64,000 nt of DNA from NCBI GenBank assembly GCA_050251055.1, contig JBFWNL010000001.1, forward strand, positions 203,825 to 267,824, read 5' to 3'. The DNA comes from Bacteriovoracia bacterium (lineage in GTDB: Bacteria > Bdellovibrionota > UBA1018 > JBFWNL01). Both the position numbers and the translations under genes were made by a program. Below are positions 13,395 through 36,259 of the stretch, in pieces. Below the pieces are notes generated by a model. It was given only the letters and a program-made list of their open reading frames with translations, did no database searches and had not been told where the DNA came from. Position 1 is the first letter of the stretch. Each line of letters begins with the position of its first letter.

Positions 13395-13514
13395 GCGAGA
13401 ATGCCTTTCACGATCCGACCCGAAAAGGGGGCACCACTCCGGGCGGATCTATTTCTTCTAAGGTACCAGTCCCCGGCGTCGCGGAGAATGTGTCAAATAT
13501 TACTGGACGGGTTG

Positions 13515-19590: not shown

Positions 19591-19609
19591 ACGGGGGCTC
19601 CTCCCTGGC

Positions 19610-20014
19610 TTAGCCTTTCACGGCTTCGAAGAAGGCCAGGATGTCGTCCTGGCGCGAGGAAAAAGTCTTCTGTAGCCTTTCCCAATGCTCTTCCTCGTAC
19701 TGAATCAGGGTTAGGGAGAGTTGGGCGCGCTCGGCATTTAAATTTTCCAGTTCGTCGATCTTGGCGGTCGCTTCAAAAACGAGGTTCGGGGTGGCGCCTT
19801 CGGTTTCGACCTTCAGCAAGACGTGGTGCCCGCGGGCCCCCGTGTTCACCGGAACTTCGACGGAAAGACCCTGCTCCAAGAACTCCACCAGCTGAACATC
19901 ACGCTTCTTGGGGTCCTTAAGATGTCCGCCGACCTCGGTGTTGGTGGTGATGTTCTTTAGCCCGATCTTAAGCGTGATCGATTTGAAGTCGTCGGGATTC
20001 AGGAGGTCTTCCAT
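19610..20014 (-). CDS. hypothetical protein (possibly PilZ-like fold); paralog of 52517-52909
   Basis: Shares 'NP.DFK....KI', 'LVE..EQ', 'A.GH.V.L' and 'QY...W.RL...F..RQ..I..F...KG' with the paralog. Confidence 0.65.
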   Translation of the reverse strand: MEDLLNPDDFKSITLKIGLKNITTNTEVGGHLKDPKKRDVQLVEFLEQGLSVEVPVNTGARGHHVLLKVETEGATPNLVFEATAKIDELENLNAERAQLSLTLIQYEEEHWERLQKTFSSRQDDILAFFEAVKG

Positions 20015-20073
20015 ATCCTCGATATTCTATGCTCCGGCCCTCGGGCCGGGCAACCTCAAAGACGAGGATCAGC

Positions 20074-21606
20074 TTAGCGGTTGCTGATTTCCTGCGCGTA
20101 GGCGTCTTTACCGGCCTGCAAAAGCTTCAGGTAGAGATCCTGGTCGACCACGACGCCGCTCTTCTCGTATTCAAGATAAAGCATGCGAATCAGCGAATAA
20201 GGATGCGCGCAGCCGGAGAGGGTCTGCAAAACCTGGCGGTAGGCTTCCACCACGTCTAGATCCCTGAGTTCTGGGGTGGCCATCCGGATCCGATGGAAGC
20301 GCGCGCCCGGGGTGGCGGAGCGCTCCATTGCTTTCAGTGCCGCGAGCAACGGCTCCATGGCCTTGGCTGTGCATTGGCTAGCCATGCCCGTGAGGTGGGT
20401 GTAAACGCGGTCGGATCCGCCTAGCTTGACGAACTCGATCTCGGCCTTGAGCGCGGGATCGCGCGACGGCTCGACCATGGCCTCCGCATCGTCCAGTGCC
20501 GGGAAAAATGCAAATTCGGTGGAGGGCGCTACATCCTTGGGTAAGAGTTTACGGATGGCCTTGAACTGGCGCGCGATTGCGCGCGCGGTGGAGTCCCGGC
20601 TGCTGTCCAATGCTTTCAAGAACGAGTCGAGCACGAGTTTCGTGTTCGTGGCGGTCAGGTTGGCCGCGGATGGACCGGTGAGGAAGTTCATGTACATCTT
20701 GAACCACAGGGCCAACGTCTGCTTTTGCACCTTCTCCCCGTAGCCTTTGGGCCAAAACTCGTCCGGGTCGATATAGTAGCCGCGAAGGTGATCGGGGATC
20801 GCCTTCCAGTTCAGCAGCCCTTGGGGGAGGGGGTATTTGGAGGTGCCGCCGAAGCGGCAGCCAGTCATCTTAAATCCAAGGCCCGATTTCTTAACGCGGT
20901 AATCACCTAGGCAGATCTGCTCGAAGAAAAAGTCGCGAACGTCGGGTTCGAGTTCCACTGCAAATTTGCCGACCTCGCCCAAGGCGTCGAGCTTTCCCGG
21001 GCACGCGTTCAAGGTGTCTTTTATGGTTTTCTCATTGAAGAAATATTTTTCGAGAAAAGTAAGCCAGGTCGTGGCGTAGTCTTCCGGGGTCGAGAGGTCC
21101 GGCCACGTAAATCCCGTGAAGTTAAAGAGTCCGGCTCGGCTGTTCTGAAAGATGTCGGTTACGCAAACCTGGCCTCGTAAGCAGCCTTCCTTTCGGTAGC
21201 CGACCTTGGCTTCGGCTTCGGTGGCCGCCGGTGAGTTCTTGATCTTCTCGACTGGGCATCCCTGAAACTGCTTTGCTTGCTGGGCTCGCAGGGTATCTTC
21301 GTGCTGGGTGAGTCTTGAACACACCTCGGCGTCGCAACCATTGGTAATTGTCACGGTCTGCATGCGGTGGCACGCCGCCACGAATTCCCGGCATTTTAAG
21401 TCGTCGGGACCTTTGCCATCAAGATCAGTCCAAAGGCGCAAACAATAGTCCCGCGCGGTACTGCCGTAAGACTCGACGCCCGCGTAGTACTGGAAAAAAC
21501 CGTGAAAGTAGATGCCGTCAAAGTCGCAATCAGCGGACGCGGAAACCGGAGTTCCGAGGAGCCCCCAAGCCAAACCGATGGTCATAAGCGTGCCAGATAG
21601 CTTCAT
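20074..21606 (-). CDS. secreted Cys-motif protein E (paralog of 32998-34425)
   Basis: ATG at 21606 overlaps the upstream stop (ATGA). Signal peptide ending ASA|; Cx6C motif; C-terminus aligns with protein A. Confidence 0.75.
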   Translation of the reverse strand: MKLSGTLMTIGLAWGLLGTPVSASADCDFDGIYFHGFFQYYAGVESYGSTARDYCLRLWTDLDGKGPDDLKCREFVAACHRMQTVTITNGCDAEVCSRLTQHEDTLRAQQAKQFQGCPVEKIKNSPAATEAEAKVGYRKEGCLRGQVCVTDIFQNSRAGLFNFTGFTWPDLSTPEDYATTWLTFLEKYFFNEKTIKDTLNACPGKLDALGEVGKFAVELEPDVRDFFFEQICLGDYRVKKSGLGFKMTGCRFGGTSKYPLPQGLLNWKAIPDHLRGYYIDPDEFWPKGYGEKVQKQTLALWFKMYMNFLTGPSAANLTATNTKLVLDSFLKALDSSRDSTARAIARQFKAIRKLLPKDVAPSTEFAFFPALDDAEAMVEPSRDPALKAEIEFVKLGGSDRVYTHLTGMASQCTAKAMEPLLAALKAMERSATPGARFHRIRMATPELRDLDVVEAYRQVLQTLSGCAHPYSLIRMLYLEYEKSGVVVDQDLYLKLLQAGKDAYAQEISNR

Positions 21607-22999
21607 GGTGCGCCGATCTCCGTTTGGAGTTGATCCAGATAGGTTTTTGCTCGGGCGGTCGTATCTTGATACAGAGAAAACCAGCGTACCCGCTCGCCGA
21701 TGACGGGGCGATCGAGCTGTAAAAATTTCGCCAGTGCTTCCGCCGAGAATAGACGCTGTAGGCGCCTCGCCGGGCTCTCTGTGCGGTCGGTGATCACCGC
21801 CTCCATCGTAGCGATATAAACATAGGCGGCAACCGCCTGCCTTTGGGAGGCAATCGCGACCGGCCACCGGGAAGGCTCGCTATCTAAGGTGGACGCAATA
21901 CGAACCAGCGCCGGCAAAATAGCCGGGTTTTCACGCACAGCGGTCTGGATTTTTTCTCCGGCCAGTGGGAGCGAGTCCTTCGTGCGGAAGTTTTCGATCA
22001 CCGCGTGATGCGGAGCGGTTTTAATCTCCGGAAATGTCAATTCCGCAGGCGTGTCCGCGGCGCTGAGCCCTCGGCGTATGGCTTCGTCAACGTAAAGCTG
22101 GGCCAAGGGTTGATAGAGGCGCGCGCGGCTCATGCCTTTGGGGTATCTTTCGCCACTGACATGGGCCAAGAAGTCACGAAGGTCGCGCACAAGTCCGGAG
22201 TCGGATTGGTCACCCGCGGTCACAAGCCGCTCGTGGAGGGTGCGTAGATAAGCTTGCAAAAAGCGATCGTGGTAGAGGTGGGCGTATAATTCGACTTCGA
22301 ATGTGCCCAGCTTAATTTTCTCCGTTCTCCCGAAGAAATTGATTTTTTGAACGATCGGCTTATCGGATTTGGGGTACATGCCGAGAATCACCCGCTCGTA
22401 GTCAGCGAACGAAATTTTTGGATCAAGTCTAGGGATGACGGTGGTCGGGTAAGCATCCCACGGGCGCTGGCCGCCAATAGATGATCCGAAATGGGGATGC
22501 ACGGTGGTGATGAGTTCCTGCCACGCTTCTTGAGCCTCTTTCACCGAAGCCGTGGGCAAGGTACCGCCCACCGACAGCACGGGTGCGCCGCGGTCGGTGT
22601 ATTCCACCCCGCAAGCGTGCCATTCGGGAGGCCCATTTCTGCGTCCCCCGCTCGCGCGGAGAATGGTTCGCAGTATTCTAATGTTTCCTGCCATTCTTTT
22701 GTCCCGAAGTCGACCTTGGGAGCAGGCGGCGTGGGGGGAAGAATCGTCTGGCAAAGCGCGCGATCCTGCTCGTCGTGCGGATAAGGACCGCCGGGCTCTC
22801 CCGGTTTAGTCCTCAGTAGCTGACGGCACACGCGTCGGTAGAGCGCGCATTCGTCCGAAGCCTTCTCCTGGGTTCCTGGACATTGACGTTGCAAATCGGC
22901 TCGGATGAGTTCGGATGCGAAAAATTCATGGGCCTGCGCTGACGTCACGCCACCGAGGAGCACGATCGACGTTAAGGAAAAGAGTCCAAGACGGTTCAC
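21603..22999 (-). pseudogene. secreted Cys-motif protein D, split by a frameshift (ORFs 22541-22999 and 21603-22754)
   Basis: The N-terminal ORF has a signal peptide, Cx6C and DRALC. The overlapping ORF carries the family C-terminus 'LQLDRPV.GERVRW..YQD' seen in B and C. Confidence 0.65.
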
Positions 23000-23988
23000 T
23001 TTTTCTTCTCCTTACCGTTTTTCTTAGGGGTTTCCACGACGCTTTTTCCTTCGAGTTTGGGCCAGAGTTGCTCAATGTGTCCGACGCTAGTGAAGTTTTT
23101 CGCGGCCCCTTCCGTATCAATGCGGATATCCGCAAGCAGCCGGCGGTGGGACTCGGCGACGGCGTCGAGGCTCTTGCCCAAGAAGGCAGCGGGGGTTCCG
23201 CAGACAGCCGATACCTTGCCCACCACATACTCGGTGCCACTGACGACCATGGGCGGGAGTTCTTGGTATATCGACTTGAGGATTCCGATTACTTCGCCAG
23301 AGTTATTGAGCAGGGGGCTGCCGGAATTTCCGGGGCGCGCGGTACAGCCTTTCATATCGACGTTTAGCTTTTCGAAGCCGGTGGTAGAGCACATCTCGAT
23401 GTCGAGCGTGGCGAGATACCCGATGCGGGGTTCGGAAATATAGCGAGCATCGAAAGTGGATGAAATCTTCCAGGGATGCTTCGGAAAGGAATCGGACTTC
23501 GCCGCAATCGGAAGCGGTTCCACGCCTCGGATGGAAACCGGCTCCTCAAGCTCCAAGATCGCGATGTCCTGTTCAGTGCTGTCATAGGTGATCGCGGTCA
23601 TTTGGTACGTTTGGATCTTGCTTACCGCCGCTACGGCGTTTGAGGCGAGATTTGCATCTTGGGGAAACTCACGAAAGATCGCCTGGACGCGGACAAATTG
23701 CTCCGGCCGCCGCGCGATGCAATGGTGGTTCGTCATTACGAACTGTGAGCCGATGAGGAAGCCCGTACACGCGCTGATGTCGTCCATCTTTTCGCCAGCC
23801 GGTGTTTTCATGAGCTTTTCGACGACGAGGGTGGCCACGGCGGCGCGTGCGCGCGCGACGCCCTCGGGCATCACGGTGCTTAAATCGCTCGAGTCCGCGA
23901 GGGCGGCACTCGATGTGAACCCGAGCGCAAGGGCTAGCGGCAGCGCCAGTCCCGCGGGGGAGAAGCCGTCAGTGGATCTCGATCGCAT
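22996..23988 (-). CDS. secreted trypsin-like serine protease (copy 2)
   Basis: Signal peptide ending ALA|; triad TNHHC, QDIAIL, PGNSGSP. Confidence 0.88.
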   Translation of the reverse strand: MRSRSTDGFSPAGLALPLALALGFTSSAALADSSDLSTVMPEGVARARAAVATLVVEKLMKTPAGEKMDDISACTGFLIGSQFVMTNHHCIARRPEQFVRVQAIFREFPQDANLASNAVAAVSKIQTYQMTAITYDSTEQDIAILELEEPVSIRGVEPLPIAAKSDSFPKHPWKISSTFDARYISEPRIGYLATLDIEMCSTTGFEKLNVDMKGCTARPGNSGSPLLNNSGEVIGILKSIYQELPPMVVSGTEYVVGKVSAVCGTPAAFLGKSLDAVAESHRRLLADIRIDTEGAAKNFTSVGHIEQLWPKLEGKSVVETPKKNGKEKKK

Positions 23989-26900
23989 ACCCTTCGTCCT
24001 TCGTGCCTTGCCCCTCTACGACCACGCGCAAAGTTTTTCCGGCCAAGTCGTTTAGCGTCAGCGTAGGCTTGCCAGTCGCCGGGTCCTTGTGCTCAAGCAT
24101 TGCGCCAAGGAGGTCATAAAAGAGCGTATTGAGGAGGTAATCCAATCCGGTTTCCAGGGGACGCGCGCCCGTACTGTCGCGCCCGTAGTTATCCCGTACA
24201 AGCTTCTCGTAAACCGGCTCGGAGAACTCGATCTTGTAAGTCGCCTTGGGGCGCTTGGCGAGCGCGTCCTTGGCCATGAGCTTCGCTAGCGCCAAGCCTT
24301 CTTCTTGATTGAGGTTGGTGTAAACTAGCCAGTTTTCGAGCGGGATACGCCCGATCGTCCAGTCGGGCATCGCGTTCTTGGCCCGCATCTCCCCTTGAAT
24401 TTCTTTAATCAAAGCGTTCTGGGAGACCATCAGCTGTTGTTTATTGTAGTTCCGCCAGTCGGGGTTAGCCTCTTCCCAGGCCTTGATTTTCCCGATACCA
24501 AAGTTCGACGTCATGAAGATCACCCCGCGGTTGAACACGGCTTTGGCGCCGCTCGTGCTTTTGATCCAGCCTTCATCGAAGAGCACGTCAAACGCCGTGA
24601 TGATTTCTCGATTCGCCTTGTCCACTTCGTCAAACAGCACGAGGCCCGTTTTGTTCTGGTTCATGAAGTCGATGAGCGGCGCGCTGCCGTACCCGACATA
24701 CCCATGCGGCGGACCGAGCAGGCCGTCGACCTTGTGCTCTTCCTTGAACTGCTCCATTTGCCAGGACTCCATCTTGACGCCGAAGTAGCCGGAAAGGGTC
24801 TTGCCGGTGAAAGTTTTGCCGGTCCCCGAGCCGCCGAGAGCCAAGAATAGGCAAACGGGTTTGTTGGGCACGATGCCGCCCTGATAAACACGCCGGCGAA
24901 AGCAGTCGACTACCCGGTCCTTCATGCCGCGTTGACCGATGATCTTGGCGTCTAGTGCGGCGCGGAGGGCCATCACTTTTTCCTCGTCCACGTAAGGAAC
25001 GGGGATCGTCATTTTCTTCGTGGCGGCGAGCAGGTCCGGCAGTTCCACTTGCGCGGATCCCGCGACCCCTTGCAGTGACATCTTTTCGGCAAGCGCCGTG
25101 ACCGCTTCTTCCAGAATGACCATGTCCGAGGCGGGGTGTGGCGTTTCCGGGAGCTGAGTGCCGGCGATTTCAATAAGCTTGCTTTCGAGTCCTGCCGCTA
25201 AGCCGACGCCGCGTTCGGCCGCGAAGGCGTCCGCCCGCATGCGGATGAATTGGGGGAGTTCACGCTTCATGTCGTAGTCGGGAAAAGCGTGGTCGTGCAA
25301 GGTAATCCGTAGCGCTTGCTTTTGATTGAGTTCGCTCGTCTGCTCGTTATTGCCCGAGGTGCTGGCGATCACGATTACCTGGCCCGACTGGGCAGCGGTG
25401 AGAAGGTCGTCGATGAGATCCCCGCCGTTACCGCCCATGCCGATCATCCGCTCGAGATTACGGAAAAAGAGGATAACGCGCTTGTAGCGGGCGGCCGCGA
25501 TGATGTTGGACATCTTTTCCTTCGAGAGGTCGGCTTTGCCCTGGGTGCCCAGGCTCGCGATGTCGATTTCGAAGATGTCCCAGGCGGCGGCAGAATCCTC
25601 GGGCGCTTTGGCGAGCTCTTGGGCGAGGCGGATGACGAGATCGGATGCATCCATGGCTTCGCCCGCTCGAATCATAATATTGCGTGGCTTCTCGAAGTTC
25701 ACCCGTTTACGAAACTCTTCGTAACGCACGGGCAGAAGGGGGCCGGGGCCGACCCGTCCTTGGCGCACGCCGGTAACGAGCGAGCGGCCAAATTTCTCGA
25801 TGGAAGCCGAGGCGGTCTCATCGAACGGCGCACGTACGGCCACGATTTCGGCGGCGGCTGCGGGCTTGCCATTCGGCCCGGCGGCTCGCGGACGCGTAAA
25901 GGTTTGCGAGAGGTTTTCCTGACGATTCACCATCTGGATGCCGTTGATATCGAGCACGAACTGATATTTTCGCGCGTAGTCGTTCCAGTCGAGCTTAAGC
26001 TTGTCGTTCAGAACCGTCTGCTGGCCGTCTTTACCCCAGAACTCCAGCGAAATGAGCCCTTCCCGTTGAAGTACGACATAGACACCATCGGCATTGGGAT
26101 AGGCTTGGGCCGGACAGCTGCCGAACGAGCGCGACTCCGTCGCGGATGACCACACGAGGTTGCCCGTAAGAAAGAACATCTTCGATTTGCCGGGTTCGTA
26201 AAGCTCGATTTTATACTGACCGCTCGGATCGAGGATGCGGGAGTTTGGCTCCGGCCAAATTGAGGCCGGCGTCTGTCCGGGAGGAGATACCTGCGGCTGC
26301 GCGGCGAGAGTGCGCGAAGCCGTGGTGGGAAGGGAAGTCGTGGGGCCTCCCTGTTTTCTTTCCTTCTTCTCCTTGGCTTCCGCTTCGGCTTCTTCTTCCT
26401 TGTCTTTTTCGGCGGGCGGCGCGTCGGGCTTTTTGCCGCCGGCAGCTTCCGGCGTTTTCTTCGGACCAGTGGCGTTACCGCCACCGCTGGCAGCCTTGAG
26501 CTCGGTTTGGACGGCCTCCGATTCAACGCTAAAAATTTCCCCGAGAGCCGAGCGTAGATCTTGCGCCTTGGTCTCCGGATTTAAGAAGAAGGTTTTGCCT
26601 TCGTTATCGGCCGTGATCTTATCGAGCTGGTCGGCGTACATTTTGTCCTGGCCGACGTGCACGACGCTGAATCCATTTTTGCAGGCGGACTTATGTTTAG
26701 GCAAGGTGGCCATGAGCCGCTCGGGGCCGGCTCCACCACAGCTATGCTCACCGTCGGTGAGCAGCACGACTTGCAGGCAGCCTCCACCCGCATAGGCGTC
26801 CATTTCCTTGTTCGCCAAGGTCAACGCGCCCGTGATGTCGGTGGCCCCCCCACAGACGATCGAGTTCATGGCCGCCATGAATTCTCCACCGTTGTATTCC

Positions 26901-27226
26901 TTGCCCACTCGAATGAGCACGTTGGCGGTGCCGGGCCCGCATCCGTTAAACGTAATAAGCCCGAGGGAGTACGGGTTTTTTTTCTTATCGAGCTTTGCCA
27001 CGATATCCGCCGCCGTAAGCTGCACCTGGTGCAGCATTCCTTCCGGAGGAGTCATCGAACCCGAGATGTCGAGCACGAACAGGAAATCTTTGCGGGCACC
27101 GCGGACGATTCCGGCGTCGCCTCCGACCGGAGGGTCAGCCAGGGCGTTCAAGTAGGTGAGTCCCAGGAGAAGCGTCGTCACCCAAAAGGATCGAACCAAG
27201 AATGGCAAGTAACGGGCGCGGCTCAT
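23969..27226 (-). CDS. signal peptide + VWA + Clp/Hsp100-like AAA+ protein (degenerate D1, intact D2)
   Basis: N-terminus ends ALA|DPP. MIDAS DISGS..T..LLTDG. D2 has GGSGTGKT, GPPHGYVGY, LFDEVDKA, TSN and GARPL. Confidence 0.85.
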   Translation of the reverse strand: MSRARYLPFLVRSFWVTTLLLGLTYLNALADPPVGGDAGIVRGARKDFLFVLDISGSMTPPEGMLHQVQLTAADIVAKLDKKKNPYSLGLITFNGCGPGTANVLIRVGKEYNGGEFMAAMNSIVCGGATDITGALTLANKEMDAYAGGGCLQVVLLTDGEHSCGGAGPERLMATLPKHKSACKNGFSVVHVGQDKMYADQLDKITADNEGKTFFLNPETKAQDLRSALGEIFSVESEAVQTELKAASGGGNATGPKKTPEAAGGKKPDAPPAEKDKEEEAEAEAKEKKERKQGGPTTSLPTTASRTLAAQPQVSPPGQTPASIWPEPNSRILDPSGQYKIELYEPGKSKMFFLTGNLVWSSATESRSFGSCPAQAYPNADGVYVVLQREGLISLEFWGKDGQQTVLNDKLKLDWNDYARKYQFVLDINGIQMVNRQENLSQTFTRPRAAGPNGKPAAAAEIVAVRAPFDETASASIEKFGRSLVTGVRQGRVGPGPLLPVRYEEFRKRVNFEKPRNIMIRAGEAMDASDLVIRLAQELAKAPEDSAAAWDIFEIDIASLGTQGKADLSKEKMSNIIAAARYKRVILFFRNLERMIGMGGNGGDLIDDLLTAAQSGQVIVIASTSGNNEQTSELNQKQALRITLHDHAFPDYDMKRELPQFIRMRADAFAAERGVGLAAGLESKLIEIAGTQLPETPHPASDMVILEEAVTALAEKMSLQGVAGSAQVELPDLLAATKKMTIPVPYVDEEKVMALRAALDAKIIGQRGMKDRVVDCFRRRVYQGGIVPNKPVCLFLALGGSGTGKTFTGKTLSGYFGVKMESWQMEQFKEEHKVDGLLGPPHGYVGYGSAPLIDFMNQNKTGLVLFDEVDKANREIITAFDVLFDEGWIKSTSGAKAVFNRGVIFMTSNFGIGKIKAWEEANPDWRNYNKQQLMVSQNALIKEIQGEMRAKNAMPDWTIGRIPLENWLVYTNLNQEEGLALAKLMAKDALAKRPKATYKIEFSEPVYEKLVRDNYGRDSTGARPLETGLDYLLNTLFYDLLGAMLEHKDPATGKPTLTLNDLAGKTLRVVVEGQGTKDEGYAIEIH

Positions 27227-30200
27227 TTTTCACCTCCGGCGACGAAGTCCGACGTGATTAGGTTTTTCCGGTCGAGCTGCTTCTGGATTTCGGGATCTTC
27301 GAGGTTGGTGATGACTTCGAGTTTTCCGTTTGGCATCAGCACAATGTAAAAGTCATGGAGATCCGCAAGCGAGTCTTCCGTCAGGGTTTCCTGGATTTGG
27401 TTGAATTTTTCCGCGACCTTGGTGAAGACTTCATTGTCGAGCGTGTTCTTGATCGTGTGTCCGTTGCCGGCGTTCGCGTTGCGGTTCTTGTCGCTGGCGG
27501 CCATGCCTTGGCGGACGACTTTAAGCGCGTAGCCGCGAGAAAGGTGGATCTTCACGGGGCGATTCCAGTTGTCTTTTAGGCGCGTTTCCAGGCGCTTGAG
27601 CTGAAGCGCGAGCACGCCCAAACCTTGATCTTCGGTAAATGGGGTGAAGATGCAAACCTTGCTCGAAATCCGGCTCCAGATGAAGTCGGGGATCTGCCCG
27701 CGCTCGAGATTCTCCTCGTTCGTGCGCACCAGCCCGCCTTGGGCGATGCGGTCGATAAAGAGCGCCTCGTTGTCGGCGTTGACTTCGGCCATGCCGGATT
27801 CGAGTGAAATCGCCTGAATGTCCTTCGCCGCGTAATTGGCGGTGAGGATTACGAGGGTGCTGCGGAAGTCGAGGTAGTCATCGTCGTTCTCGCCGGATAA
27901 GGGGTAGCGTCCTTCCTCGAGAATGGGGTGCAGGGCCTTAATGACGTCGGGCTCGGCCTTGTCGATTTCGTCAAACAACACAATCCGGGGCTTGCTGCCC
28001 ATTTCCTTGAGCTTGGCGGCATCTTTGGACGAGATGAGCTGCGAAGGACCGGCGGCCAAGTTGATTGTATAGAGGGGGAACTTGAGCACATCGGCGAGCG
28101 CGCGAGCGCTTTCGGTTTTGCCCACTCCTTTGGGGCCGATGAAGAGAAACGTCCCGTAGCCGCGCGTCTTGTCGTACATGCGGGTCCGGATCATAGAAGC
28201 CGCCTGGGCGAGGCGCTCGATCGCGCGATCGTGGCCGACGATGCGCTGGTGCATTGCCGCTTTGAAGGAGTCGTCGTCGTGGGAAATTAATTTGACCTGG
28301 TAGGTCGCCTCCGCGAACTGTCCCAGAACCTCGGTGTTTACGAGGGTCGGCTGATTGCCGGAAACGGCGGCTTGCTGGGTGCGGGCGTAAGCGCCAATTT
28401 CCGCGAGCGTGGTGAGGGTCCGCTCAGGTTCGGCGAGTTCCGGGTGAAATTGCGCGGACATTTCGAAGACGCGAGCCAGGACGTCGTCGCGGAATTGGAC
28501 GGCGTGACGCATCTGGATCTGGTAGAGCTGGGATCGGACGATGGCGCGGAGTACGTCGCCCTGGGGTGGCTGTACGTAAATGGTGCGGGCCAGGGTGTCG
28601 AGCACCGGGTTGTTCTTCTTGGCTTGTTCCCAGTGCTTATCTTCCGTAATGGTGACGATGAGCATGGAGCGGCTTTCGAGGTCGCTTACGTCGTTGCCGT
28701 TCGCCAAGCTGTTGAATGCGCCCATGAGCAAAGTCAGCTGTTCGCTCGCTCCCATGTTTCCTTGCTGTTTAAGGAAATTGTCGATCACGAGCGCGGCGCG
28801 CTTGCGCCAGAATACCTTACGCAGCTCGCCCCACGGGTTCGGCGCGGTCTTCGCCGCGTCGTTCGGCCCTGCGCTTGCCCGGGCGTTTTCGATTTTGATC
28901 CCGGCTTCCCAAGTGGATTGGATTTTTTCGGGGGGAATTCCGATCAATTTAAAACTCTCGATCTCGCGCGGCAGGGTCAGCTTGTTAGCCCACGCCAGCT
29001 GGTTCGCTAGGTCTTGGACCACGTCGGCGGCATTCACCCCGCGAGGAGCCACGATATTGATCCAGCCCGTGGAGCCGTAGACGAGGTTGCCTAACAGGGC
29101 CTGTGAGTATTCGGGGCGGTGGACGACATTCATGCTCTCGCCGAGCTCCGCGCGCTGGGTATAGTCGGTGAATTTGTGCTCGCGCAGGACTTTGTGGTCT
29201 TCGTCGCTCAGGCGGTTACGGAGGCTGTAGTTCGCGGTTTCGAGCTCGGACCCGTCGTAGAGCACCAGATAGCGCTCCCATTGCCCGTTGGCATTGCGAT
29301 TCTGCACCGTGGCTTGGTTATTGATGATTGAAAACTTCTTGCTTGCGTTGCCGGGACGGGAAAAGGAAACGCGGACGGATTGGGTGCGCGTGTCGTACTT
29401 CAGGAAAGAGAGCTTCTGCGAGGCGGATTCGCTCAGATCGCCCTCCAGAAAAAAGATGCCTTCGCGGATGATCGAGACGCGCATCGCGAGCTGGGAAAGA
29501 TCGAAGTTCGCGGGGGCGAGTTCGGTTAGCGCTCCCTCTTGGGTGGCATAGTATAAAGCGGCTCGCTTACTCTGCGGGGATTGGCCTACGAAGTAAAAGC
29601 CGGACGAAGATACGTCGCTCGTCACGATCTGGCTAAACGGGGTTACGGGAAAATCCTTCACTTGTTTTCCGTCGTTGCTGGCGTAGGTCAGGATTTTCTG
29701 GCCATTTACCTTGCGGGTGACGAGCACGCCGCCGGCGATGGGGTAGAGATCTCCCGCGGAGGGCGGCGTTCCTGGCAAGATGAGGCGCTTCTCATCGATT
29801 TCGAAGCGTAGTTTGGCGTTCTGGCGAAGTACCCAAGGGAGGGCATTGGGGTTGCCGACTTGAATGCTCACGAAGCCGATTTGGTAGCTGCCGTTTCCGC
29901 TATTTTGCGCTACTTGCGGGATCGCGGGCTTTGGTTCACCGGGGCCCGCGATTTTCACGTCGCGCGTCAGTGTGCCGGGCTGATCGGGGTTGTCGATGAC
30001 ACAAGAAGCGACGTTGTATTGCGCGACGATCCCGCCGTTTCCGCGCTCCAGGGTCAAGGAGGTCTGGTCTTGATAGTAAAGGCCGGGCTTAATCGTCGCC
30101 TTGTATCCGTCTTTTCTGAGTCGCGCCTGAAGGAGCGTGGCCTCGTCTTCGGGGAGCGCGAAGTAATGGTAAGAAGGAGCGGTGCCTTTGGCTGCCTGGG

Positions 30201-30264
30201 CAAGCGTGGCGGAAAAAAGCATGAGACCGCTGATGGCTAAAAAGGAACTCACCTGTGATTTCAT
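27223..30264 (-). CDS. signal peptide + beta-rich domain + Clp/Hsp100-like AAA+ protein (degenerate D1)
   Basis: N-terminus ends AQA|. D2 has 'QRIVGHDRAI', FIGPKGVGKTESARALA, LFDEIDKA and LDFRSTLVILTAN. Confidence 0.85.
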   Translation of the reverse strand: MKSQVSSFLAISGLMLFSATLAQAAKGTAPSYHYFALPEDEATLLQARLRKDGYKATIKPGLYYQDQTSLTLERGNGGIVAQYNVASCVIDNPDQPGTLTRDVKIAGPGEPKPAIPQVAQNSGNGSYQIGFVSIQVGNPNALPWVLRQNAKLRFEIDEKRLILPGTPPSAGDLYPIAGGVLVTRKVNGQKILTYASNDGKQVKDFPVTPFSQIVTSDVSSSGFYFVGQSPQSKRAALYYATQEGALTELAPANFDLSQLAMRVSIIREGIFFLEGDLSESASQKLSFLKYDTRTQSVRVSFSRPGNASKKFSIINNQATVQNRNANGQWERYLVLYDGSELETANYSLRNRLSDEDHKVLREHKFTDYTQRAELGESMNVVHRPEYSQALLGNLVYGSTGWINIVAPRGVNAADVVQDLANQLAWANKLTLPREIESFKLIGIPPEKIQSTWEAGIKIENARASAGPNDAAKTAPNPWGELRKVFWRKRAALVIDNFLKQQGNMGASEQLTLLMGAFNSLANGNDVSDLESRSMLIVTITEDKHWEQAKKNNPVLDTLARTIYVQPPQGDVLRAIVRSQLYQIQMRHAVQFRDDVLARVFEMSAQFHPELAEPERTLTTLAEIGAYARTQQAAVSGNQPTLVNTEVLGQFAEATYQVKLISHDDDSFKAAMHQRIVGHDRAIERLAQAASMIRTRMYDKTRGYGTFLFIGPKGVGKTESARALADVLKFPLYTINLAAGPSQLISSKDAAKLKEMGSKPRIVLFDEIDKAEPDVIKALHPILEEGRYPLSGENDDDYLDFRSTLVILTANYAAKDIQAISLESGMAEVNADNEALFIDRIAQGGLVRTNEENLERGQIPDFIWSRISSKVCIFTPFTEDQGLGVLALQLKRLETRLKDNWNRPVKIHLSRGYALKVVRQGMAASDKNRNANAGNGHTIKNTLDNEVFTKVAEKFNQIQETLTEDSLADLHDFYIVLMPNGKLEVITNLEDPEIQKQLDRKNLITSDFVAGGEK

Positions 30265-30347
30265 TCCAGTCCTTTCCCGTTTTGACGCACCGTATTATAT
30301 TTGCGGCGGTTTCGCAAGTTGGTATTGGATGAAAAAAGTCGGTTTAT

Positions 30348-31640
30348 TTAGGGGCTTACCGTTGATTCGAGGCTGTCGGTAAGCGCCTTGGGCAGCAGGG
30401 CGAGGGCCCGTTCCGAGGCATCCAGATATTCGTTTCTCCAGCGGGGTTGGCCACCGGAGGGCGGTTGATCGAGCTCCAAGCACCCGGATAAGCGCCGAAG
30501 CAGGAAGAGGTACTCTAGGCGCTCGGGGGCCCGGCCCGTGAGGGAGGTGGCTAGCGCGTCAACCGAGCCAATATAGATATGAGCGCCGAGCGCCTGTACG
30601 CTCGCGAAGGAATCCTCTTGGAACGACGCGGGGTCGAGTTTCCGACGCATCTCCAGCGTCTGGATCGCGTAGTTTAATAAGGAACCCCCCGGAGGGTTGG
30701 CGAGCAGATTTCGACTGGCCTCCTCTTGCACCCTCCAGGCGGATGGAGAGACCTCGTTGTCGGCGACCAGTCCCGCGAGGATCTGCCGCTGTACTTCCGT
30801 CTTTCCCCAGTTGGCGATCTGGGCTTTGAGCTGGGCTTGGTTTTCCACCAGCTTGGCCCGCCGATCGAGATACGATTCGATTTCACCGCGAATTCGCATG
30901 ACTTCGGCCAGTAGCCCGGCCGCGCTCGGCATATCCGCATTTTCTTCCAGAGCGGTTTGAAGCTCACGAAGATCCCGTAGAAACTCTTCCGGCTTCGTGT
31001 AGTCTCGTTCGGTGTAACGCCGCTGCGTGAGCTTCACGTAGTGGGTAAAGAGCGCCAGCTCCATCTGGTGCTGGTAGGCATCGAGCTGGTTTTTTGGAAT
31101 CGTCGCTTCGAAGAGATCGAATCCAAGGCGGAATCTATGGCGGTAGTTAGCGGGAAAGCGCACGGCTTCCAAGAGCCGTGAAAAGTCCTTGAACTGCGTC
31201 GCGGTATTGAGGCCGGGTAGCCAACCCCGCAACCGATCGGCCCATTGCATAGGCTGGAGTTCATAATCTTTTTTAAGGGAGCTGAATTTTTTTAAGAGCG
31301 AGGTCACGGTTTCCTCGCCCGTGGGGAGGCGAGGGGACGGGACGCCGATGCTTCCCTTAGGCGCGGGGGCGGGCTCCAAGTAGCCCAATCCTCGCTCCCT
31401 TCGGCTTTTTCGGAGCTGCTCGCAAAGCGCCTGGTCCTCGCTATCGAGCTCCTTGGAGGTTTCGCAGGCGAATGCCAAGCTGTCACAGAGGGCGGCGTCC
31501 CGGCCCGATAGGGTCGGCAAGTGAATGCAAGTATTGATGGTAAAACTCACCAGCCGGGGATCGGAAAAAAACTGATACGCCTCCGCTGGCCTAGGCACTA
31601 GGCTGCCGAGGAGCAGAATCAGGGCGCCCGTTCGTCTCAT
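30348..31640 (-). CDS. secreted Cys-motif protein C
   Basis: ATG at 31640 overlaps the upstream stop. AEA|YQFF, Cx6C, DSEDQALC; C-terminal LELDQP...PRW. Confidence 0.75.
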   Translation of the reverse strand: MRRTGALILLLGSLVPRPAEAYQFFSDPRLVSFTINTCIHLPTLSGRDAALCDSLAFACETSKELDSEDQALCEQLRKSRRERGLGYLEPAPAPKGSIGVPSPRLPTGEETVTSLLKKFSSLKKDYELQPMQWADRLRGWLPGLNTATQFKDFSRLLEAVRFPANYRHRFRLGFDLFEATIPKNQLDAYQHQMELALFTHYVKLTQRRYTERDYTKPEEFLRDLRELQTALEENADMPSAAGLLAEVMRIRGEIESYLDRRAKLVENQAQLKAQIANWGKTEVQRQILAGLVADNEVSPSAWRVQEEASRNLLANPPGGSLLNYAIQTLEMRRKLDPASFQEDSFASVQALGAHIYIGSVDALATSLTGRAPERLEYLFLLRRLSGCLELDQPPSGGQPRWRNEYLDASERALALLPKALTDSLESTVSP

Positions 31641-33001
31641 GGCTTGGCCGCCTCCTGGGAGAGCAATGGCATGAGCGTTTGCAGCTGGGACGAACGATCT
31701 TGATAGTCCGTCCACCAGCGGACTTGCTCGCCTTGAACGGGCTGATCGAGGTTTAACCGGGCCCGAAGCTCCGTGAGCAGGGCAGCGACCTGGATCTTTG
31801 CTTCCGCCGACTCCGCCGGCATCTGCAGAAGCGCGCTTACGGCGCCGATGTACGCGTTGGCGGCCACGCTTTGCAGTCCTCCGAAATCAGGGGAGGTCCG
31901 CAAGTCGGGATCCTGCAGGGTGCGGAGTTCGTAGATGGCCAGCAGGCGCGCGGGGAAAGTATTTTGCGGTTCGCGAATCGAAAGCGTGGTTTGCGCGAAG
32001 GCGGCCTCCCGGATAAAAGTCGCCCCGGGGATTTCCGCGCCGGGGGTGAGGAATGCCTCGTAGAGTGGGCGATGCTCGGGGATCCTGCACCACTTCGTGA
32101 TCTCGGCCCGCAGACGCGCTTCTTCGCGGGCCGCGATCGCCTGCCTTTCCAGGACCTCGTCAATTTCTTGCAGCCATTCGCGCACCGTCCGCGCATACTC
32201 CGCCATCGTGTCGCGGCCCCTGATCGTGGAGTCCGCCAGCTCGAGGTCGGTCAAGAAGTCCGCGAGGTCGGCGCGAAAAACCCCTAGATTCTTGAAGTCG
32301 CGATTCTCGAAGCGGGCTTTCGAGAGCGTGAAATAGAGGCGGAGTCCGGCGGCGGTGATCTGGGGGCGAATCACCTCCAGGTTTCCGGCATACCGAGTCC
32401 CCCCTACCATCATGCCATCGCGCTTCACGCGAAAGGAGTATTCCTTTCCCTGGAGCGGCGAGAGGAGGGTCTTTAAAATCCTTCGCATGTCCTTAATAGT
32501 GATATCGCTGCGCAAGGTTGTTCGTGCCTGGGCCAAGAAGGTCGGCCACTCGTAGGGATCGCAACCGTTGAAGTCTTTTTTTCGGTACGCTTCCCAGCGT
32601 TTCAAAAATTCGTCCACGGTCTCATTCCCTCGCAGGGGCTGCGGTGCGGGGCGAGTGAGCGGAGGACGAGGCCCCGGGGGGGCTGGCGTGGTGCCCGGGG
32701 ACGCACCGCCGGGAGGCACCCAGCCCGCGGGATTGATGATTCCGTCGCAAAGCGCGATATCCTCGGCGTCCATGACCGAGTATCCGCGGGTCAGTTGGCA
32801 GAGAGAGTCGAGGAGCCTGCAGTATTCGCCCCAGATCCGATCGGAGCCGTAGGTCTTCTGAATGCACGCGCCGACGATCGTCGTTACTTCCTTAGCCTGG
32901 AAGTAACGGTAAGCGTGGGCGGGGGGCATGTAGATGAGTGCCGACATGCCGACGAGCGCAAGGATCAGCCTTTGGCGGAAACGGGGCTTTGGGCCGGTCA
33001 C
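31637..33001 (-). CDS. secreted Cys-motif protein B
   Basis: AHA|YRYF, Cx6C, DAEDIALC, Pro-rich linker; C-terminal LNLDQPVQGEQVRW. Confidence 0.75.
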   Translation of the reverse strand: MTGPKPRFRQRLILALVGMSALIYMPPAHAYRYFQAKEVTTIVGACIQKTYGSDRIWGEYCRLLDSLCQLTRGYSVMDAEDIALCDGIINPAGWVPPGGASPGTTPAPPGPRPPLTRPAPQPLRGNETVDEFLKRWEAYRKKDFNGCDPYEWPTFLAQARTTLRSDITIKDMRRILKTLLSPLQGKEYSFRVKRDGMMVGGTRYAGNLEVIRPQITAAGLRLYFTLSKARFENRDFKNLGVFRADLADFLTDLELADSTIRGRDTMAEYARTVREWLQEIDEVLERQAIAAREEARLRAEITKWCRIPEHRPLYEAFLTPGAEIPGATFIREAAFAQTTLSIREPQNTFPARLLAIYELRTLQDPDLRTSPDFGGLQSVAANAYIGAVSALLQMPAESAEAKIQVAALLTELRARLNLDQPVQGEQVRWWTDYQDRSSQLQTLMPLLSQEAAKP

Positions 33002-34425
33002 GGGAACTCCTTCTGGTACGCTTCGGAGCCCGCGCCCATCAGTTGCAGGTAAAGATCCACGCTCACGGAAACCACGCTATCTTCATAGGCCTGGTAAAGG
33101 CGACGCACGAGGGCGTAAGGCTTAGCGCAGTCACGCACGCGCGCGAGCAAGCGGCGATAACCTTCGACCGTGTCCATTTTCAGTAGCCAGTGGTCGTCGG
33201 CGACGATCTTGCCTAACCGGGAGGGGGGAAGCGCCGTCTGCCAAGGCGAAACCTTTCTTTTGGCCGCCAGCGCGTCTTCCAGTAGCCGCAGCGAGCGTAG
33301 AGCGGACTCGAGGTCCTCCATGCGGCAGCTCGTGGCTTTGCTTTCCATGGCCGCGAAAACCGCTTCGGGCGATGGGAGGGCAAGAAGTTCCACCAGCGCT
33401 TGAATTTCTGGGGCGCCGAAAGCCGTGGCCTTCGCGCCGGGCGGAGGAAACTCGAAGAGCCGAAGCTTTAAGTCGGCGTTCGCCATCCCCGGAAGGGCGC
33501 GTTCGAGTTCGGTGAAAACCTTGGAGGCATCCTGTGCAGCGGACGAACGGGAGCGTTTTAGTGAATCGACCAGCGCTGGATAAAGCACGCCTTGCTGGCT
33601 GGGGTCTAATCGTTTGAACGCGCCCTGGAACGCCGCGATCCAGGCTTCCGTGAGATTGCGCTCAAGAGTTTGCGTAATCTCGGTCGTGAAGACCTTGTCC
33701 TTGTTGATCCGATACTGCTCGTAGTTCTTCGGCGGGGAACCAAAGGCGGAGCTACTGTAGCCATTCGGCGTCCAAAGCTTCCAGCCAAGGCCCTTGCGCT
33801 CGAGCCGGTACCCATCGATGCGCATGTTGTCCACGAAAATACTTCGCAGCTTGGTTTCGTCAGACATGGAGCTGACGAAGAGCTCGCCGATGCCGCGCAT
33901 GGTCTGCGGACACTGGCGCATGCCATCGATCAGCATGTCTTCGGAATAAATTTCGTCCCGGTAATGGGAGAAAACTAATTTCGCATATCCTTCGCCGGAG
34001 GAAGTCGCATCCCAGGTATAACCCCCATAGTTGAAGAAGCCGCCGGGGCCGGGCCGGAGCAGGTTCGCGGGGCACTGCGTGCCTTCATACACGCAGGAAG
34101 GTTGCTTGGGGTCGTAGGGACAGCGGGGATTGAGCTTTCTCATCTCACGCGTGAAGGCGCGATCGGCGGCGGTTTTGAGCTCGCGGCAGAGGACCTGGTC
34201 CTCCATGTCCAGGAAGCGCGAGAGTTCGCAGGCGCTCACTAAGTGATGGCATTTGCGCCGATCTTCCACGGACGCGGTGTCGTCCGGCCAGTTCGCTAGG
34301 CAGTCCTGGGCGAGCTTGAACAGCGCCGCATCCGCGAAAATCGTGTAGGCGTGAGCGGCGGGCGGCGCGAGCGAAGTCAGCGCTAGCGCTAAAGTGATGA
34401 GCAGCGGTTTCCAGAAACACTTCAC
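32998..34425 (-). CDS. secreted Cys-motif protein A
   Basis: AHA|YTIF, Cx6C, DMEDQVLC; paralog of E. Confidence 0.75.
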   Translation of the reverse strand: MKCFWKPLLITLALALTSLAPPAAHAYTIFADAALFKLAQDCLANWPDDTASVEDRRKCHHLVSACELSRFLDMEDQVLCRELKTAADRAFTREMRKLNPRCPYDPKQPSCVYEGTQCPANLLRPGPGGFFNYGGYTWDATSSGEGYAKLVFSHYRDEIYSEDMLIDGMRQCPQTMRGIGELFVSSMSDETKLRSIFVDNMRIDGYRLERKGLGWKLWTPNGYSSSAFGSPPKNYEQYRINKDKVFTTEITQTLERNLTEAWIAAFQGAFKRLDPSQQGVLYPALVDSLKRSRSSAAQDASKVFTELERALPGMANADLKLRLFEFPPPGAKATAFGAPEIQALVELLALPSPEAVFAAMESKATSCRMEDLESALRSLRLLEDALAAKRKVSPWQTALPPSRLGKIVADDHWLLKMDTVEGYRRLLARVRDCAKPYALVRRLYQAYEDSVVSVSVDLYLQLMGAGSEAYQKEFP

Positions 34426-35348
34426 TGGCGGCCTCCGGAGGAGCGCGAGCCACGGCGAGCGGGCTTCTCGGTGGGCTTGGCCGGGGCCGGCCAGCTCATC
34501 TCGATGCCTCCGACGGCGTGATAATTAAGGGAGTCGACGGAAAGCTGCGCCTGGAAGCGGCCCAGGGTTTCGGGGTTTTCCCGGATGGAGCTCACGAAAA
34601 AACTCATGGGGGTGGCGAAGATCGCCGGTACGTCGCCGACGATGTACTCGGTGCCTTGTACGGCGACGGGAGGGATTTCCTGGAAGATTGATTTTGCGAT
34701 CGCGACCACTTCACCGGCGTCGTTCACGAGCGGGCTGCCGGAATTTCCGGCGCGCGCGGTACAGGCGACGAGCGTCCAGTTGTGCTTTTCGATGCCGGCG
34801 CCTCCGCAGATTTCCAGATCGATCGTGGGCTCGTATCCGGCGCGCGGCTCGGCGATGTATCGGTTGTCGAAGGTGGACGAGATTTTCCAGGGGTGCTTGG
34901 GCGGTTTTGCGGCGCCGACGATCGGAAGCGGCTGAATCCCCGGGATGTCCACGGATTCCTCGAGGCGTAGAAGTGCGTAGTCTTCGAGGCTGGTTTCAAA
35001 CACGATCTGGGTGGAAAGATAGCTCTGGATGCGTTCGGCGTTGGGGCGGTTGGGTGCTTGCGGCGCGCGAAATAGCACGCGGGTGCGGACCGTTTCTTCG
35101 GGCCGGCGGGCGATGCAGTGCTGATTGGTGAGGACGAGCTGTTTACCAACGAGAAATCCCGTACAGGCGCCCGTGCTCGTGACGCTCCCCTTGGCGTCGA
35201 GCTTTTCCATGATCAGCGTCGCCGTAGCCCGTAAGGCTTGGGTCACGCCGGCGGGGATGGCGCGTCCCAGGTTCGGGTTGGGGTCGGCGGCACAAAGCAG
35301 CGAGAGGCCGAGACTCGGTAGGGTGAGGGTCCATACTTGCCAGTTCAT
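34422..35348 (-). CDS. secreted trypsin-like serine protease (copy 1)
   Basis: Signal peptide; triad TNQHC, EDYALL, AGNSGSP; shares PKHPWKISSTFD.RYI.EPR.GY with copy 2. Confidence 0.88.
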   Translation of the reverse strand: MNWQVWTLTLPSLGLSLLCAADPNPNLGRAIPAGVTQALRATATLIMEKLDAKGSVTSTGACTGFLVGKQLVLTNQHCIARRPEETVRTRVLFRAPQAPNRPNAERIQSYLSTQIVFETSLEDYALLRLEESVDIPGIQPLPIVGAAKPPKHPWKISSTFDNRYIAEPRAGYEPTIDLEICGGAGIEKHNWTLVACTARAGNSGSPLVNDAGEVVAIAKSIFQEIPPVAVQGTEYIVGDVPAIFATPMSFFVSSIRENPETLGRFQAQLSVDSLNYHAVGGIEMSWPAPAKPTEKPARRGSRSSGGRQ

Positions 35349-35612: not shown

Positions 35613-35688
35613 TGGAGGTGACGGTGAGAATCGAACTCACAAAATACGGTTTTGCAAACCGTCCCATTAGCCATTCTGGCACGTCACC
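35613..35688 (-). tRNA. tRNA-Cys(GCA)
   Basis: GGTGACG/CGTCACC acceptor, ACGGT-TTGCAAA-ACCGT anticodon arm, U73, CCA. Confidence 0.95.
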
Positions 35689-35746
35689 CCTTCAAGGAGA
35701 GACCAATCTAGCTCGCGCGGGAGAATTTTTGAACCCCTAAAATCGG

Positions 35747-35784
35747 ACGGGCCAGGTGCCGCATTCGTGCAACACCTGGCCCGT
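35747..35784 (-). terminator. strong hairpin, probable 3' end of the riboswitch-containing RNA
   Basis: 12-bp perfect stem ACGGGCCAGGTG/CACCTGGCCCGT with a weak U-tract. Confidence 0.5.
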
Positions 35785-35864
35785 GAGAATTGAAGAGGAG
35801 GTCCGGGTAGGGGACCCCCCTTTGAAACTGTATTCGGTCATTCCTGACCGCGAGTTCCGCTCCT

Positions 35865-35952
35865 TTGGCAACCTGGCAAGCTTAGACCCTCGGGGTAAAG
35901 GTCGTTAGCCCCATGGCTTTGCGTGTTCAGCCTTTCGACTGACTTGCCTTTT
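35865..35952 (-). ncRNA. cyclic di-GMP-I (GEMM) riboswitch aptamer
   Basis: Minus strand reads AGGCAAGTCAGTC-GAAA-GGCTGAACACGCAAAGCCATGGGGCTAA...GCCAGGTTGCC, the GEMM-I architecture (GNRA loop, GCAAAGC, CTAA, GCC..GTTGCC). Confidence 0.8.
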
Positions 35953-36259
35953 TCAAAGGGGGTATGAGGATTAACCCACCTCTTCAAGCGGCTCCTCCTG
36001 AGCCTATGACTTCCTAAAGCGTCGAGAAATTGTTAAATTCCCTTCTCTGAGTTCAGGATATCTGGAATTGCTGCGGATGGCAAATATTAATATAACTATT
36101 TGATATTAAATGATTTAGTCTTAATATTTGCGTGTGTCTTGGCTTTAATTGTTAATTTTGCTGATGCCTCGGAAGGTGCGGCGTGAGCTAGCCCATTCTT
36201 ATCAGGATCCTCGCGCTTGCGTTGCGTCTGGGGCAGCTCATGGTTAAGATTTGAGGCGA

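Follow-up and report, generated by a model that had tools for sequence, protein, structure and literature searches.

A rare, recurrent gene module of signal-bearing Clp-like ATPases, VWA domains and S1 proteases in Bdellovibrio-like bacteria

The window analysed here, a stretch of 64,000 nucleotides from contig JBFWNL010000001.1 of a Bacteriovoracia bacterium (assembly GCA_050251055.1), contains a minus-strand array of nine co-oriented genes at positions 20074-35348, which encode two S1-family serine proteases (P1 and P2), two Clp-like ATPases (AAA1 and AAA2) and five proteins with a conserved cysteine motif (A to E). An AAA1-like ATPase, a von Willebrand factor A-type (VWA) domain, an AAA2-like ATPase and an S1 protease are found in this order in every recurring locus, and this core module is rare but recurrent in a few Bdellovibrio-like genomes. 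We tentatively read the array, with a probability of about 0.45, as a lineage-specific elaboration of a rare, conserved and Sec-exported module, which is predicted from sequence to form an extracytoplasmic machine for ATP-dependent unfolding and proteolysis. Textbooks place Clp/Hsp100 machines in the cytoplasm and describe quality control in the envelope as independent of ATP. This view is hard to reconcile with a conserved operon for Clp ATPases that are predicted to be exported and keep their catalytic residues, a VWA domain and a disulfide-bearing S1 protease.

The gene cluster and the recurring core module

The genes of the array overlap by 4 nt (start/stop) at six junctions and by 20 nt between AAA2 and P2, and C and AAA1 are separated by a gap of 83 nt.

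34422..35348, minus strand: P1, S1 (trypsin-fold) serine protease, 308 amino acids (aa), signal-like N-terminus (Trypsin_2 55.3 bits, Trypsin 49.9 bits)
32998..34425, minus strand: A, type I Cys-motif protein, 475 aa, signal-like N-terminus, without Pfam family
31637..33001, minus strand: B, type II Cys-motif protein, 454 aa, signal-like N-terminus, without Pfam family
30348..31640, minus strand: C, type II Cys-motif protein, 430 aa from the ATG at 31640 (27% identity to B)
27223..30264, minus strand: AAA1, 1013 aa, with signal, beta-rich N-domain, degenerate first AAA domain (D1) and second AAA domain (D2) of the AAA_2 type without GYVG (AAA_2 61.8 bits)
23969..27226, minus strand: AAA2, 1085 aa, with signal, VWA domain, charged linker, N-domain, D1 without P-loop and complete D2 (AAA_2 76.5 bits, VWA 44 bits)
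22996..23988, minus strand: P2, S1 serine protease, 330 aa, signal-like N-terminus (Trypsin 61.3 bits)
21603..22999, minus strand: D, type II Cys-motif gene in two reading frames, with a frameshift between about 22545 and 22605
20074..21606, minus strand: E, type I Cys-motif protein, 510 aa from the ATG at 21606 (23% identity to A)

Pfam assigns Trypsin or Trypsin_2 to P1 and P2, one AAA_2 domain near the C-terminus of each ATPase and a VWA domain to residues 47-224 of AAA2; the same scan of the cluster proteins found no family for A to E. An earlier reading of the sequence, the first-pass annotation, had described nine co-oriented genes with these overlaps, among them two Clp-like ATPases and two trypsin-like proteases. 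Both enzyme pairs are confirmed by their domains and by the Clp proteins that top the PDB matches of the ATPases, and gene order and junctions stand, but D is split by a frameshift.

A second copy of the module is located on contig C10 of the source genome (G000, 93.5% complete, whose other contigs mentioned here are C2, C3, C7-C9, C11 and C14). It consists of tightly packed genes for a 1208-aa AAA1-like protein, a 288-aa VWA protein, an 821-aa AAA2-like protein with intact D1 and a 312-aa protease, each with its own signal-like N-terminus. The VWA domain, fused to AAA2 in the window, is encoded by a separate gene in the other loci, and the window adds a second protease and A to E to the core. 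With AAA2 and the paralogue on C10 as queries, HMMER returned 27116 proteins at E <=0.001 from 1.84 billion representative sequences. Four of these, P0015 to P0018 (635, 488, 410 and 377 bits), are further family members and all start with signal-like sequences; the next matches are generic Clp proteins with at most 267 bits.

Genomes and metagenomes were scanned with a profile of the family-specific N-domain and D1. Among 185,579 species genomes, 132 stretches matched the pattern and two were confirmed, L025 from an "uncultured Bdellovibrionales" metagenome-assembled genome and L026 from "Proteobacteria bacterium SG_bin7" (G293), to which L053 also belongs. The metagenome contigs yielded 11 loci: L029 carries the module, L030 is identical to L026 and L031 consists of a single gene, on a contig of 3 kb, while the other eight (L032-L039) were dropped as signal-less Clp-like genes in unrelated contexts. 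Of 401 genomes sampled from the phylum of the window, three matched (G000, G293 and G133); the divergent copy in G133, L054, has an extra open reading frame (ORF) before a weak Trypsin_2 match, which at 23.6 bits stays under the cut-off (27.6). L025 and L053 are 64-76% identical; judged by this value and by the label of L025, the phylum is probably Bdellovibrionota. A DEAD-box helicase was discarded as relatedness marker because of paralogues and replaced by RpoB, which shows 76-82% identity between G000 and same-order genomes and 63-69% between G000 and genomes G041 and G042. These identities and the spread of the loci indicate that the module spans deep branches of one phylum in a patchy manner. 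The Bdellovibrionota-type lineage considered in the first-pass annotation is plausible, as one relative is labelled Bdellovibrionales and SG_bin7 belongs to the same phylum; the recurrence of the neighbourhood, also raised there, holds for the AAA/VWA/protease core of other genomes but was not seen for A to E in the searches made. The conserved unit is therefore AAA1-VWA-AAA2-protease and not the nine-gene set. Word-indexed searches, which scored just the 8000 candidates sharing most words and are weak evidence of absence, returned AAA2 itself and nine generic Clp proteins for the whole of AAA2, only the query for AAA1 residues 25-660, and two proteins, both from the source genome, for the type II alignment.

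Several observations concern individual loci. The C10 AAA1-like protein (L002, 370-3996) differs from the other four family members in carrying about 290 additional aa, inserted in its N-terminal part. The C10 module lies on the plus strand between the minus-strand ORFs 19351-21300 and 29790-31793, which by eye resemble rpoD and dnaG. These two genes are usually adjacent, and the position of the module between them suggests an insertion. Among the dropped loci, L032-L036 contain signal-less ClpA-like genes of about 748 aa on low-GC contigs, unrelated to the module; the gene ahead of each encodes about 280 aa, with an N-terminus resembling DnaJ.

The G+C content is uniform over the cluster and its flanks, and scans for promoter and terminator consensus sequences gave no signal above shuffle level. 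The flanking genes, for BacA/UppP, a heptosyltransferase and a Kdo transferase, serve housekeeping of the envelope and mark the organism as diderm. The window contains no clpP match, in agreement with the first-pass annotation, which had also noted the absence of genes of a type VI secretion system (T6SS); clpP matches were obtained on two other contigs, C3 and C2.

Export signals and domain architecture

Each of the nine N-termini shows an h-region that is short and free of charges and, behind it, a motif of small residues of the AQA, ALA, AHA, AEA or ASA type. A Sec-type N-terminus had been proposed for every product, including both ATPases, and all nine (D via its first frame) pass a crude signal test, an in-house script and not SignalP; its pass rate in a background of 2848 source-genome frames of >=250 aa, spurious frames included, is 21% for the first start and 40% for any start within the first 120 codons. 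Basic residues precede the h-regions except in P1, which lacks a basic n-region and is the least canonical. None of the cluster products contains a 19-residue hydrophobic stretch of transmembrane strength beyond the N-terminus, and within the h-regions no 19-mer exceeds a Kyte-Doolittle (KD) value of 1.6, apart from marginal cases in B and P2. The canonical ClpA (C11) and ClpB (C14) of the source genome have a Clp_N-like start and no signal. In the recurring loci, the crude test finds a signal-like N-terminus in every module protein but the AAA2 frame of L026; this frame is over-extended, and its version of 1158 aa, P0015, starts with a signal-like sequence. Where VWA and AAA2 are split, each keeps its own signal. 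The conserved cysteines in the proteases, the VWA domains and the N-termini of A to E likewise point outside the cytoplasm. From the signal-like N-termini kept in distant orthologues, together with these disulfide-type cysteines, we infer that the products are exported.

Signal-like N-termini were flagged by the crude test in nine of the 149 HMMER-list proteins P0014-P0162. Three are core family members and six are further Clp-like proteins (P0019, P0022, P0023, P0050, P0080 and P0095), among which P0019 has three tandem D2-type modules. Judged by these N-termini, exported Clp-like ATPases may extend beyond the family of this module. A third kind of AAA protein, a 768-aa frame with a signal-like N-terminus, is encoded on contig C2 of the source genome (L007, about 128.9-129.6 kb) and is weakly similar to AAA1 and AAA2 in their D2 region.

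The best PDB matches of the two ATPases are ClpB, ClpC, ClpA and ClpE, with ClpB as best match of AAA1 (E 6e-21) and a best E of 4e-25 for AAA2; the AAA2-type protein P0016 matches Clp proteins of the PDB with E 8e-68. D2 of AAA2 is complete (GGSGTGKT, LFDEVDKA, TSN, GRI and GARP) and includes the pore loop GYVGY at residues 842-846. In six AAA2-family members, which share 22-37% identity, the D2 Walker A motif, DE, GYVG, sensor-1 Asn, GR and GAR are invariant, and D1 is intact in five of them. AAA1 retains Walker A, Walker B, sensor 1 and the SRI arginine in D2 and lacks a segment of about 17 residues bearing GYVG, which is missing across the AAA1 family; its D1 is degenerate (APRGVNAAD, VIDNF). 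The D2 Walker A motif and sensor 1 are invariant in all five AAA1-family members, D1 is degenerate in three and the D2 Walker B Glu is replaced by Asp in two. Residues 150-320 of AAA1 are beta-rich in the structural model and resemble, with low confidence, the propellers of acylaminoacyl peptidases. The fold search with the AAA1 N-domain gave 34 chains at E <=0.001, with 1ve6 as best match (E 7.2e-5, query TM-score (TMq) 0.29), and the ESM Atlas returned no usable match for this domain. Pfam detects no Clp_N (PF02861) in either ATPase, and the NCBIfam models for ClpA, ClpB and ClpV score 85-118 bits against equivalog cut-offs of 885-1232. By sequence, the AAA2 family is placed in the Hsp100/Clp superfamily but outside ClpA, ClpB and ClpV as defined families, because it lacks Clp_N and the middle domain, scores below the equivalog cut-offs and is predicted to be located outside the cytoplasm. 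The AAA2-type proteins P0015, P0016, P0017 and those of L025 and L029 carry, relative to ClpB, an insertion of about 15-20 residues directly after the TSNFG of sensor 1, which contains L-G-[IL] or L-N-I and is absent from the window AAA2. Its position is roughly that of the ClpP-docking loop in ClpA and ClpC.

The VWA domain of AAA2 has an intact metal ion-dependent adhesion site (MIDAS), and DxSxS, T, D and four cysteines are conserved in all seven VWA family members. In the protease family, H77, D123 and S203 (P1 numbering) and four cysteines, including the HC pair at the catalytic His, are invariant in 7/7 sequences. Pfam finds no PDZ domain in P1 or P2, and NCBIfam models of the HtrA type reach 16-21 bits against cut-offs of 335-470.

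The Cys-motif proteins are divided into type I (A and E) and type II (B, C and D), two subfamilies that share only an N-terminal motif of four cysteines, present directly behind the signal in all seven N-termini of this kind; type II members also share a C-terminal block. E and A are 23% identical over 470 aa (E 2e-40), and B and C are 27% identical. The AlphaFold2 model of B (mean predicted local distance difference test (pLDDT) 73.0, predicted TM-score (pTM) 0.55) is confident and all-alpha from residue 120; its fold search against the PDB gave nothing at E <=0.001, the best match being the Munc13 MUN domain at E 0.19. Contig C8 encodes a 712-aa protease-type I fusion, to whose C-terminal part A is 42% identical, followed by a type II gene, and C9 carries a lone type II gene. 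The fusion indicates that protease and type I proteins act together, and the two gene fusions, VWA-AAA2 and protease-type I, point to parts with a joint function. Modelling of AAA hexamers with the protease and A to E had been suggested in the first-pass annotation; a complex prediction was run for P1 with A. The score of 0.43 (runs 0.39, 0.43 and 0.44; best of three controls 0.00) lends weak support to binding in the model. In the calibration, 58 of 80 solved complexes and two of 110 mismatched pairs came up to the mark; only seven of the 80 solved complexes, but both passing mismatches, did so with a score of <=0.60. The P1-A runs share >=48% of contacts, with a partner pLDDT of >=73.

Proposed function, regulation and alternative explanations

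In the predicted machine, all products would cross the inner membrane as unfolded chains, as their N-termini, the conservation of these and the disulfide-type cysteines suggest. AAA2, ClpA-like with GYVG and complete D2, would by homology form a ring through which a protein substrate is threaded and unfolded, and its MIDAS-bearing VWA domain and N-domain may hold the substrate or a partner. With its propeller-like N-domain, degenerate D1 and missing pore loop, AAA1 is more likely a regulatory or adaptor ATPase than a threading motor. The S1 protease would cleave the unfolded chain or mature a component, and the helical four-Cys proteins A to E are candidate lineage-specific partners of the protease, as adaptors, inhibitors or substrates. 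Because the ATPase motifs are conserved, the machine must work where ATP is available; outside the own cytoplasm this might be within or at a cell that serves as prey or host, or in a periplasm to which ATP is supplied. Predation by this organism, action inside prey and adaptor or cargo roles of A to E, as raised in the first-pass annotation, are putative.

Expression might be controlled by cyclic di-GMP (c-di-GMP), since a riboswitch lies upstream of P1 on the same strand. It was overlooked in the first-pass annotation, as were the paralogous modules elsewhere in the genome.

35864..35958, minus strand: c-di-GMP-I riboswitch aptamer (Rfam RF01051, 70.2 bits against a gathering threshold of 35, E 1e-11, model positions 1-87 of 87)
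35749..35782, minus strand: 17-bp hairpin followed by GUCCGAUUUUA (short U run), terminator- or expression-platform-like (fold of 35700-35965, z-score -4.1)
35613..35688, minus strand: tRNA-Cys (GCA), between riboswitch and P1 (ARAGORN; Rfam tRNA 63.3 bits)

The riboswitch is the sole RF01051 match in the whole source genome, and no ORF lies between it and P1. It may be a stand-alone RNA of the merRNA kind or a leader that gates read-through into the cluster. The accessible text of PMC3627812 describes such a stand-alone c-di-GMP riboswitch RNA (merRNA) in Bdellovibrio bacteriovorus, massively expressed and with no ORF behind it. The two are alike in being single c-di-GMP-I riboswitches without an ORF directly behind, in possibly related lineages, as far as that text goes; the riboswitch of the window differs in preceding a hairpin, tRNA-Cys and a protease operon on one strand.

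A number of points weigh against an exported, ATP-driven machine encoded by a regulated nine-gene operon. The terminator-like hairpin and the tRNA gene separate the riboswitch from P1, and the other module loci have no RF01051 riboswitch. A to E were not found outside the source genome in word-indexed, type II profile and ESM Atlas searches; the ESM Atlas gave no usable match for A, and the type II profile found no A to E in G041 and G042, where an empty answer of such a scan shows little. None of 40 same-order relatives contains the module, their matches to the AAA part being ClpA- and ClpB-sized only. D is not one open frame: signal and Cys motif are encoded at 22541-22999 and the C-terminal part at 21603-22754, and the homology to the paralogues changes frame in the interval given above. 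The stretch is identical in contigs of sequencing runs X1 and X2, which come from one study of a landfill metagenome, possibly the source of this DNA, and are therefore not independent. In D1 of AAA2, RAGEAMDAS stands where the P-loop is expected and FFRNLE where Walker B is expected, and AAA1 lacks the sensor-2 GAR, which four of five relatives retain in altered form. Because of these losses, the window copies of the ATPases may be weakened derivatives, as judged by their motifs. The model of the AAA1 N-domain is poor (pLDDT 53.1), and the export calls are those of the crude signal test. Furthermore, the periplasm is held to lack ATP, and S1 proteases are not known as partners of Clp rings.

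Of the alternatives, a machine in the own periplasm, fuelled by an inner-membrane exchanger of the TLC family that exports ATP for ADP, is unlikely, even though L025, L053 and L029 have a TLC-family gene downstream of the protease and the sole PF03219 (TLC, ATP/ADP transporter) matches of G041 and G042 adjoin the module. In L025, two genes for polytopic membrane proteins start 12 nt after the protease gene; the first product, TLC1, reaches 37.6 bits on PF03219 (cut-off 21), and the L029 protein, whose gene ends at the contig edge, is 37% identical to it. L053 has one gene, of the second (TLC2) type, at the same position; PF03219 matches of this type are marginal, and the L053 gene has no Pfam match at E 0.01. 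The TLC-like proteins have 9-12 hydrophobic segments, and TLC1 scores 33.5 bits on TIGR00769 (NTP/NDP exchanger) against a cut-off of 387. The single TLC-like gene of the source genome (40.3 bits on PF03219, cut-off 21) lies away from the modules on contig C7, no such gene occurs near L026, no PF03219 match was found in the module-bearing G133 (93% complete), and a TLC-like gene is also present in seven of the 40 module-less same-order relatives. In addition, TLC-family carriers of predators are usually read as ATP importers, according to the accessible text of PMC13755416. The adjacency fits a module and a carrier that both work where outside ATP exists as well as a carrier that supplies the ATP, and proves neither. 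In L029, a 478-aa RCC1-repeat protein with a signal-like N-terminus (12992-14428; RCC1_2, 90 bits) is encoded between the protease and the TLC-like gene.

Somewhat less probable is a motor in the manner of the Plasmodium PTEX complex, in which an exported ring unfolds A to E or orphan cargo and pushes it across the outer or a prey membrane, with the protease maturing the cargo. PTEX HSP101 (6e10 and 6e11) is among the PDB matches, but at the generic level of Clp D2. In most loci, orphan ORFs particular to the locus follow the protease, co-oriented with it and signal-bearing (x503 and x925 in L025 and L053, x354 and x324 in L026, x367 in L054); however, those of different loci show no detectable similarity to each other or to A to E, the C10 copy has none after its protease, and the module has no conserved companion gene for a pore or membrane component. 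The ATP problem would vanish if the N-termini were anchors or non-functional and the products formed a membrane-tethered cytoplasmic Clp/VWA chaperone comparable to MoxR-VWA pairs, a known cytoplasmic pairing of AAA+ and VWA proteins (NorQ/NorD; accessible text of PMC9976466). We consider this improbable in view of the short h-regions with basic residues before and small-residue cleavage motifs after them, the disulfide-type Cys pairs conserved in S1 proteases and VWA domains, the signals kept by both split VWA and AAA2 genes, and an AAA module of the AAA_2 and not the MoxR type. The least probable alternative is an ATP-independent scaffold, in which exported AAA pseudo-enzymes hold substrates for the proteases. 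The degenerate D1 of both window ATPases and of three of five AAA1-family members, and the Glu-to-Asp exchange in Walker B of two of these, would suit it, but the D2 Walker A/B, sensor 1, Arg and GAR remain invariant in six diverged AAA2-family members, with D1 intact in five. The exported unfolding and proteolysis machine is the reading that we tentatively prefer. Its more specific form, an exported Clp motor with VWA receptor and S1 protease that is fuelled in some Bdellovibrio-like bacteria by TLC-pumped periplasmic ATP or by ATP at the prey interface, is doubtful, though less so than any of these alternatives. If it holds, ATP-driven chaperone or protease machinery would exist in the bacterial envelope itself, contrary to the accepted rule.

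Comparison with known systems

The cluster does not correspond to a described system in Pfam, NCBIfam, PADLOC or the literature searched, as the first-pass annotation had presumed, and no published description of an exported bacterial Clp-type ATPase was found in the literature covered, which excludes subscription journals and supplements. Reading the cluster as a defence system was rejected, because PADLOC gave domain-level matches only (DolB and PDC-M37B to AAA, RT-Protease to trypsin) and none for A to E or VWA. A role of the ATPases as ClpV of a T6SS was also rejected, since the ClpV equivalog cut-off is missed and no TssC/VipB, for which the control genome was positive, was found in the source genome (93.5% complete).

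The module ATPases resemble ClpA, ClpB and ClpC in their best sequence matches, the two-tier arrangement of D1 and D2, the GYVG of the AAA2 family and the sensor and Arg residues of D2. They differ in having a signal and new N-domains and no Clp_N, and from ClpB also in lacking the middle domain, as the alignment skips ClpB residues 406-529. In contrast to Clp systems, the neighbouring protease is of the S1 type and not ClpP, and D1 is inactivated in the window copies. MoxR-VWA pairs (NorQ/NorD, RavA/ViaA) likewise combine an AAA+ ATPase with an adjacent or fused MIDAS-bearing VWA domain. However, MoxR proteins belong to another AAA+ clade and are cytoplasmic, whereas the module has AAA_2-type ATPases (Pfam AAA_2, AAA_5 and AAA; no MoxR-type family), and both partners carry a signal and disulfide-type cysteines. 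HtrA/DegP are, like the module protease, extracytoplasmic proteases of the S1 fold and serve envelope protein turnover without ATP; the module protease differs in lacking PDZ domains and in being translationally coupled to ATPases.

The HSP101 of the Plasmodium PTEX complex is a ClpB-type ATPase with a signal that acts outside the cytosol of the producing cell. It is found among the PDB matches of the module ATPases but is eukaryotic, and nothing in the module corresponds to its partners EXP2 and PTEX150. Torsins are signal-bearing AAA+ proteins of the lumen of the endoplasmic reticulum and relatives of Clp D2; their motifs are weakened, and they depend on partner proteins. Pfam Torsin matches AAA2 and the AAA1 proteins of L026 and L054 weakly, with 17.6-19.6 bits against a cut-off of 27 (17.6 for the window AAA2). 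Torsins have a single AAA module, whereas the AAA2 family keeps pore loop and GAR. By analogy, PTEX HSP101 and the torsins, both eukaryotic, would be the nearest functional parallels. If export and activity of the module proteins hold true, either ATP enters the periplasm or the machine is passed on to another cell; in the latter case it would represent a bacterial counterpart of the PTEX motor or the torsins. Either outcome would open the study of extracytoplasmic energy use and of protein processing by Bdellovibrio-like bacteria outside their own cytoplasm.

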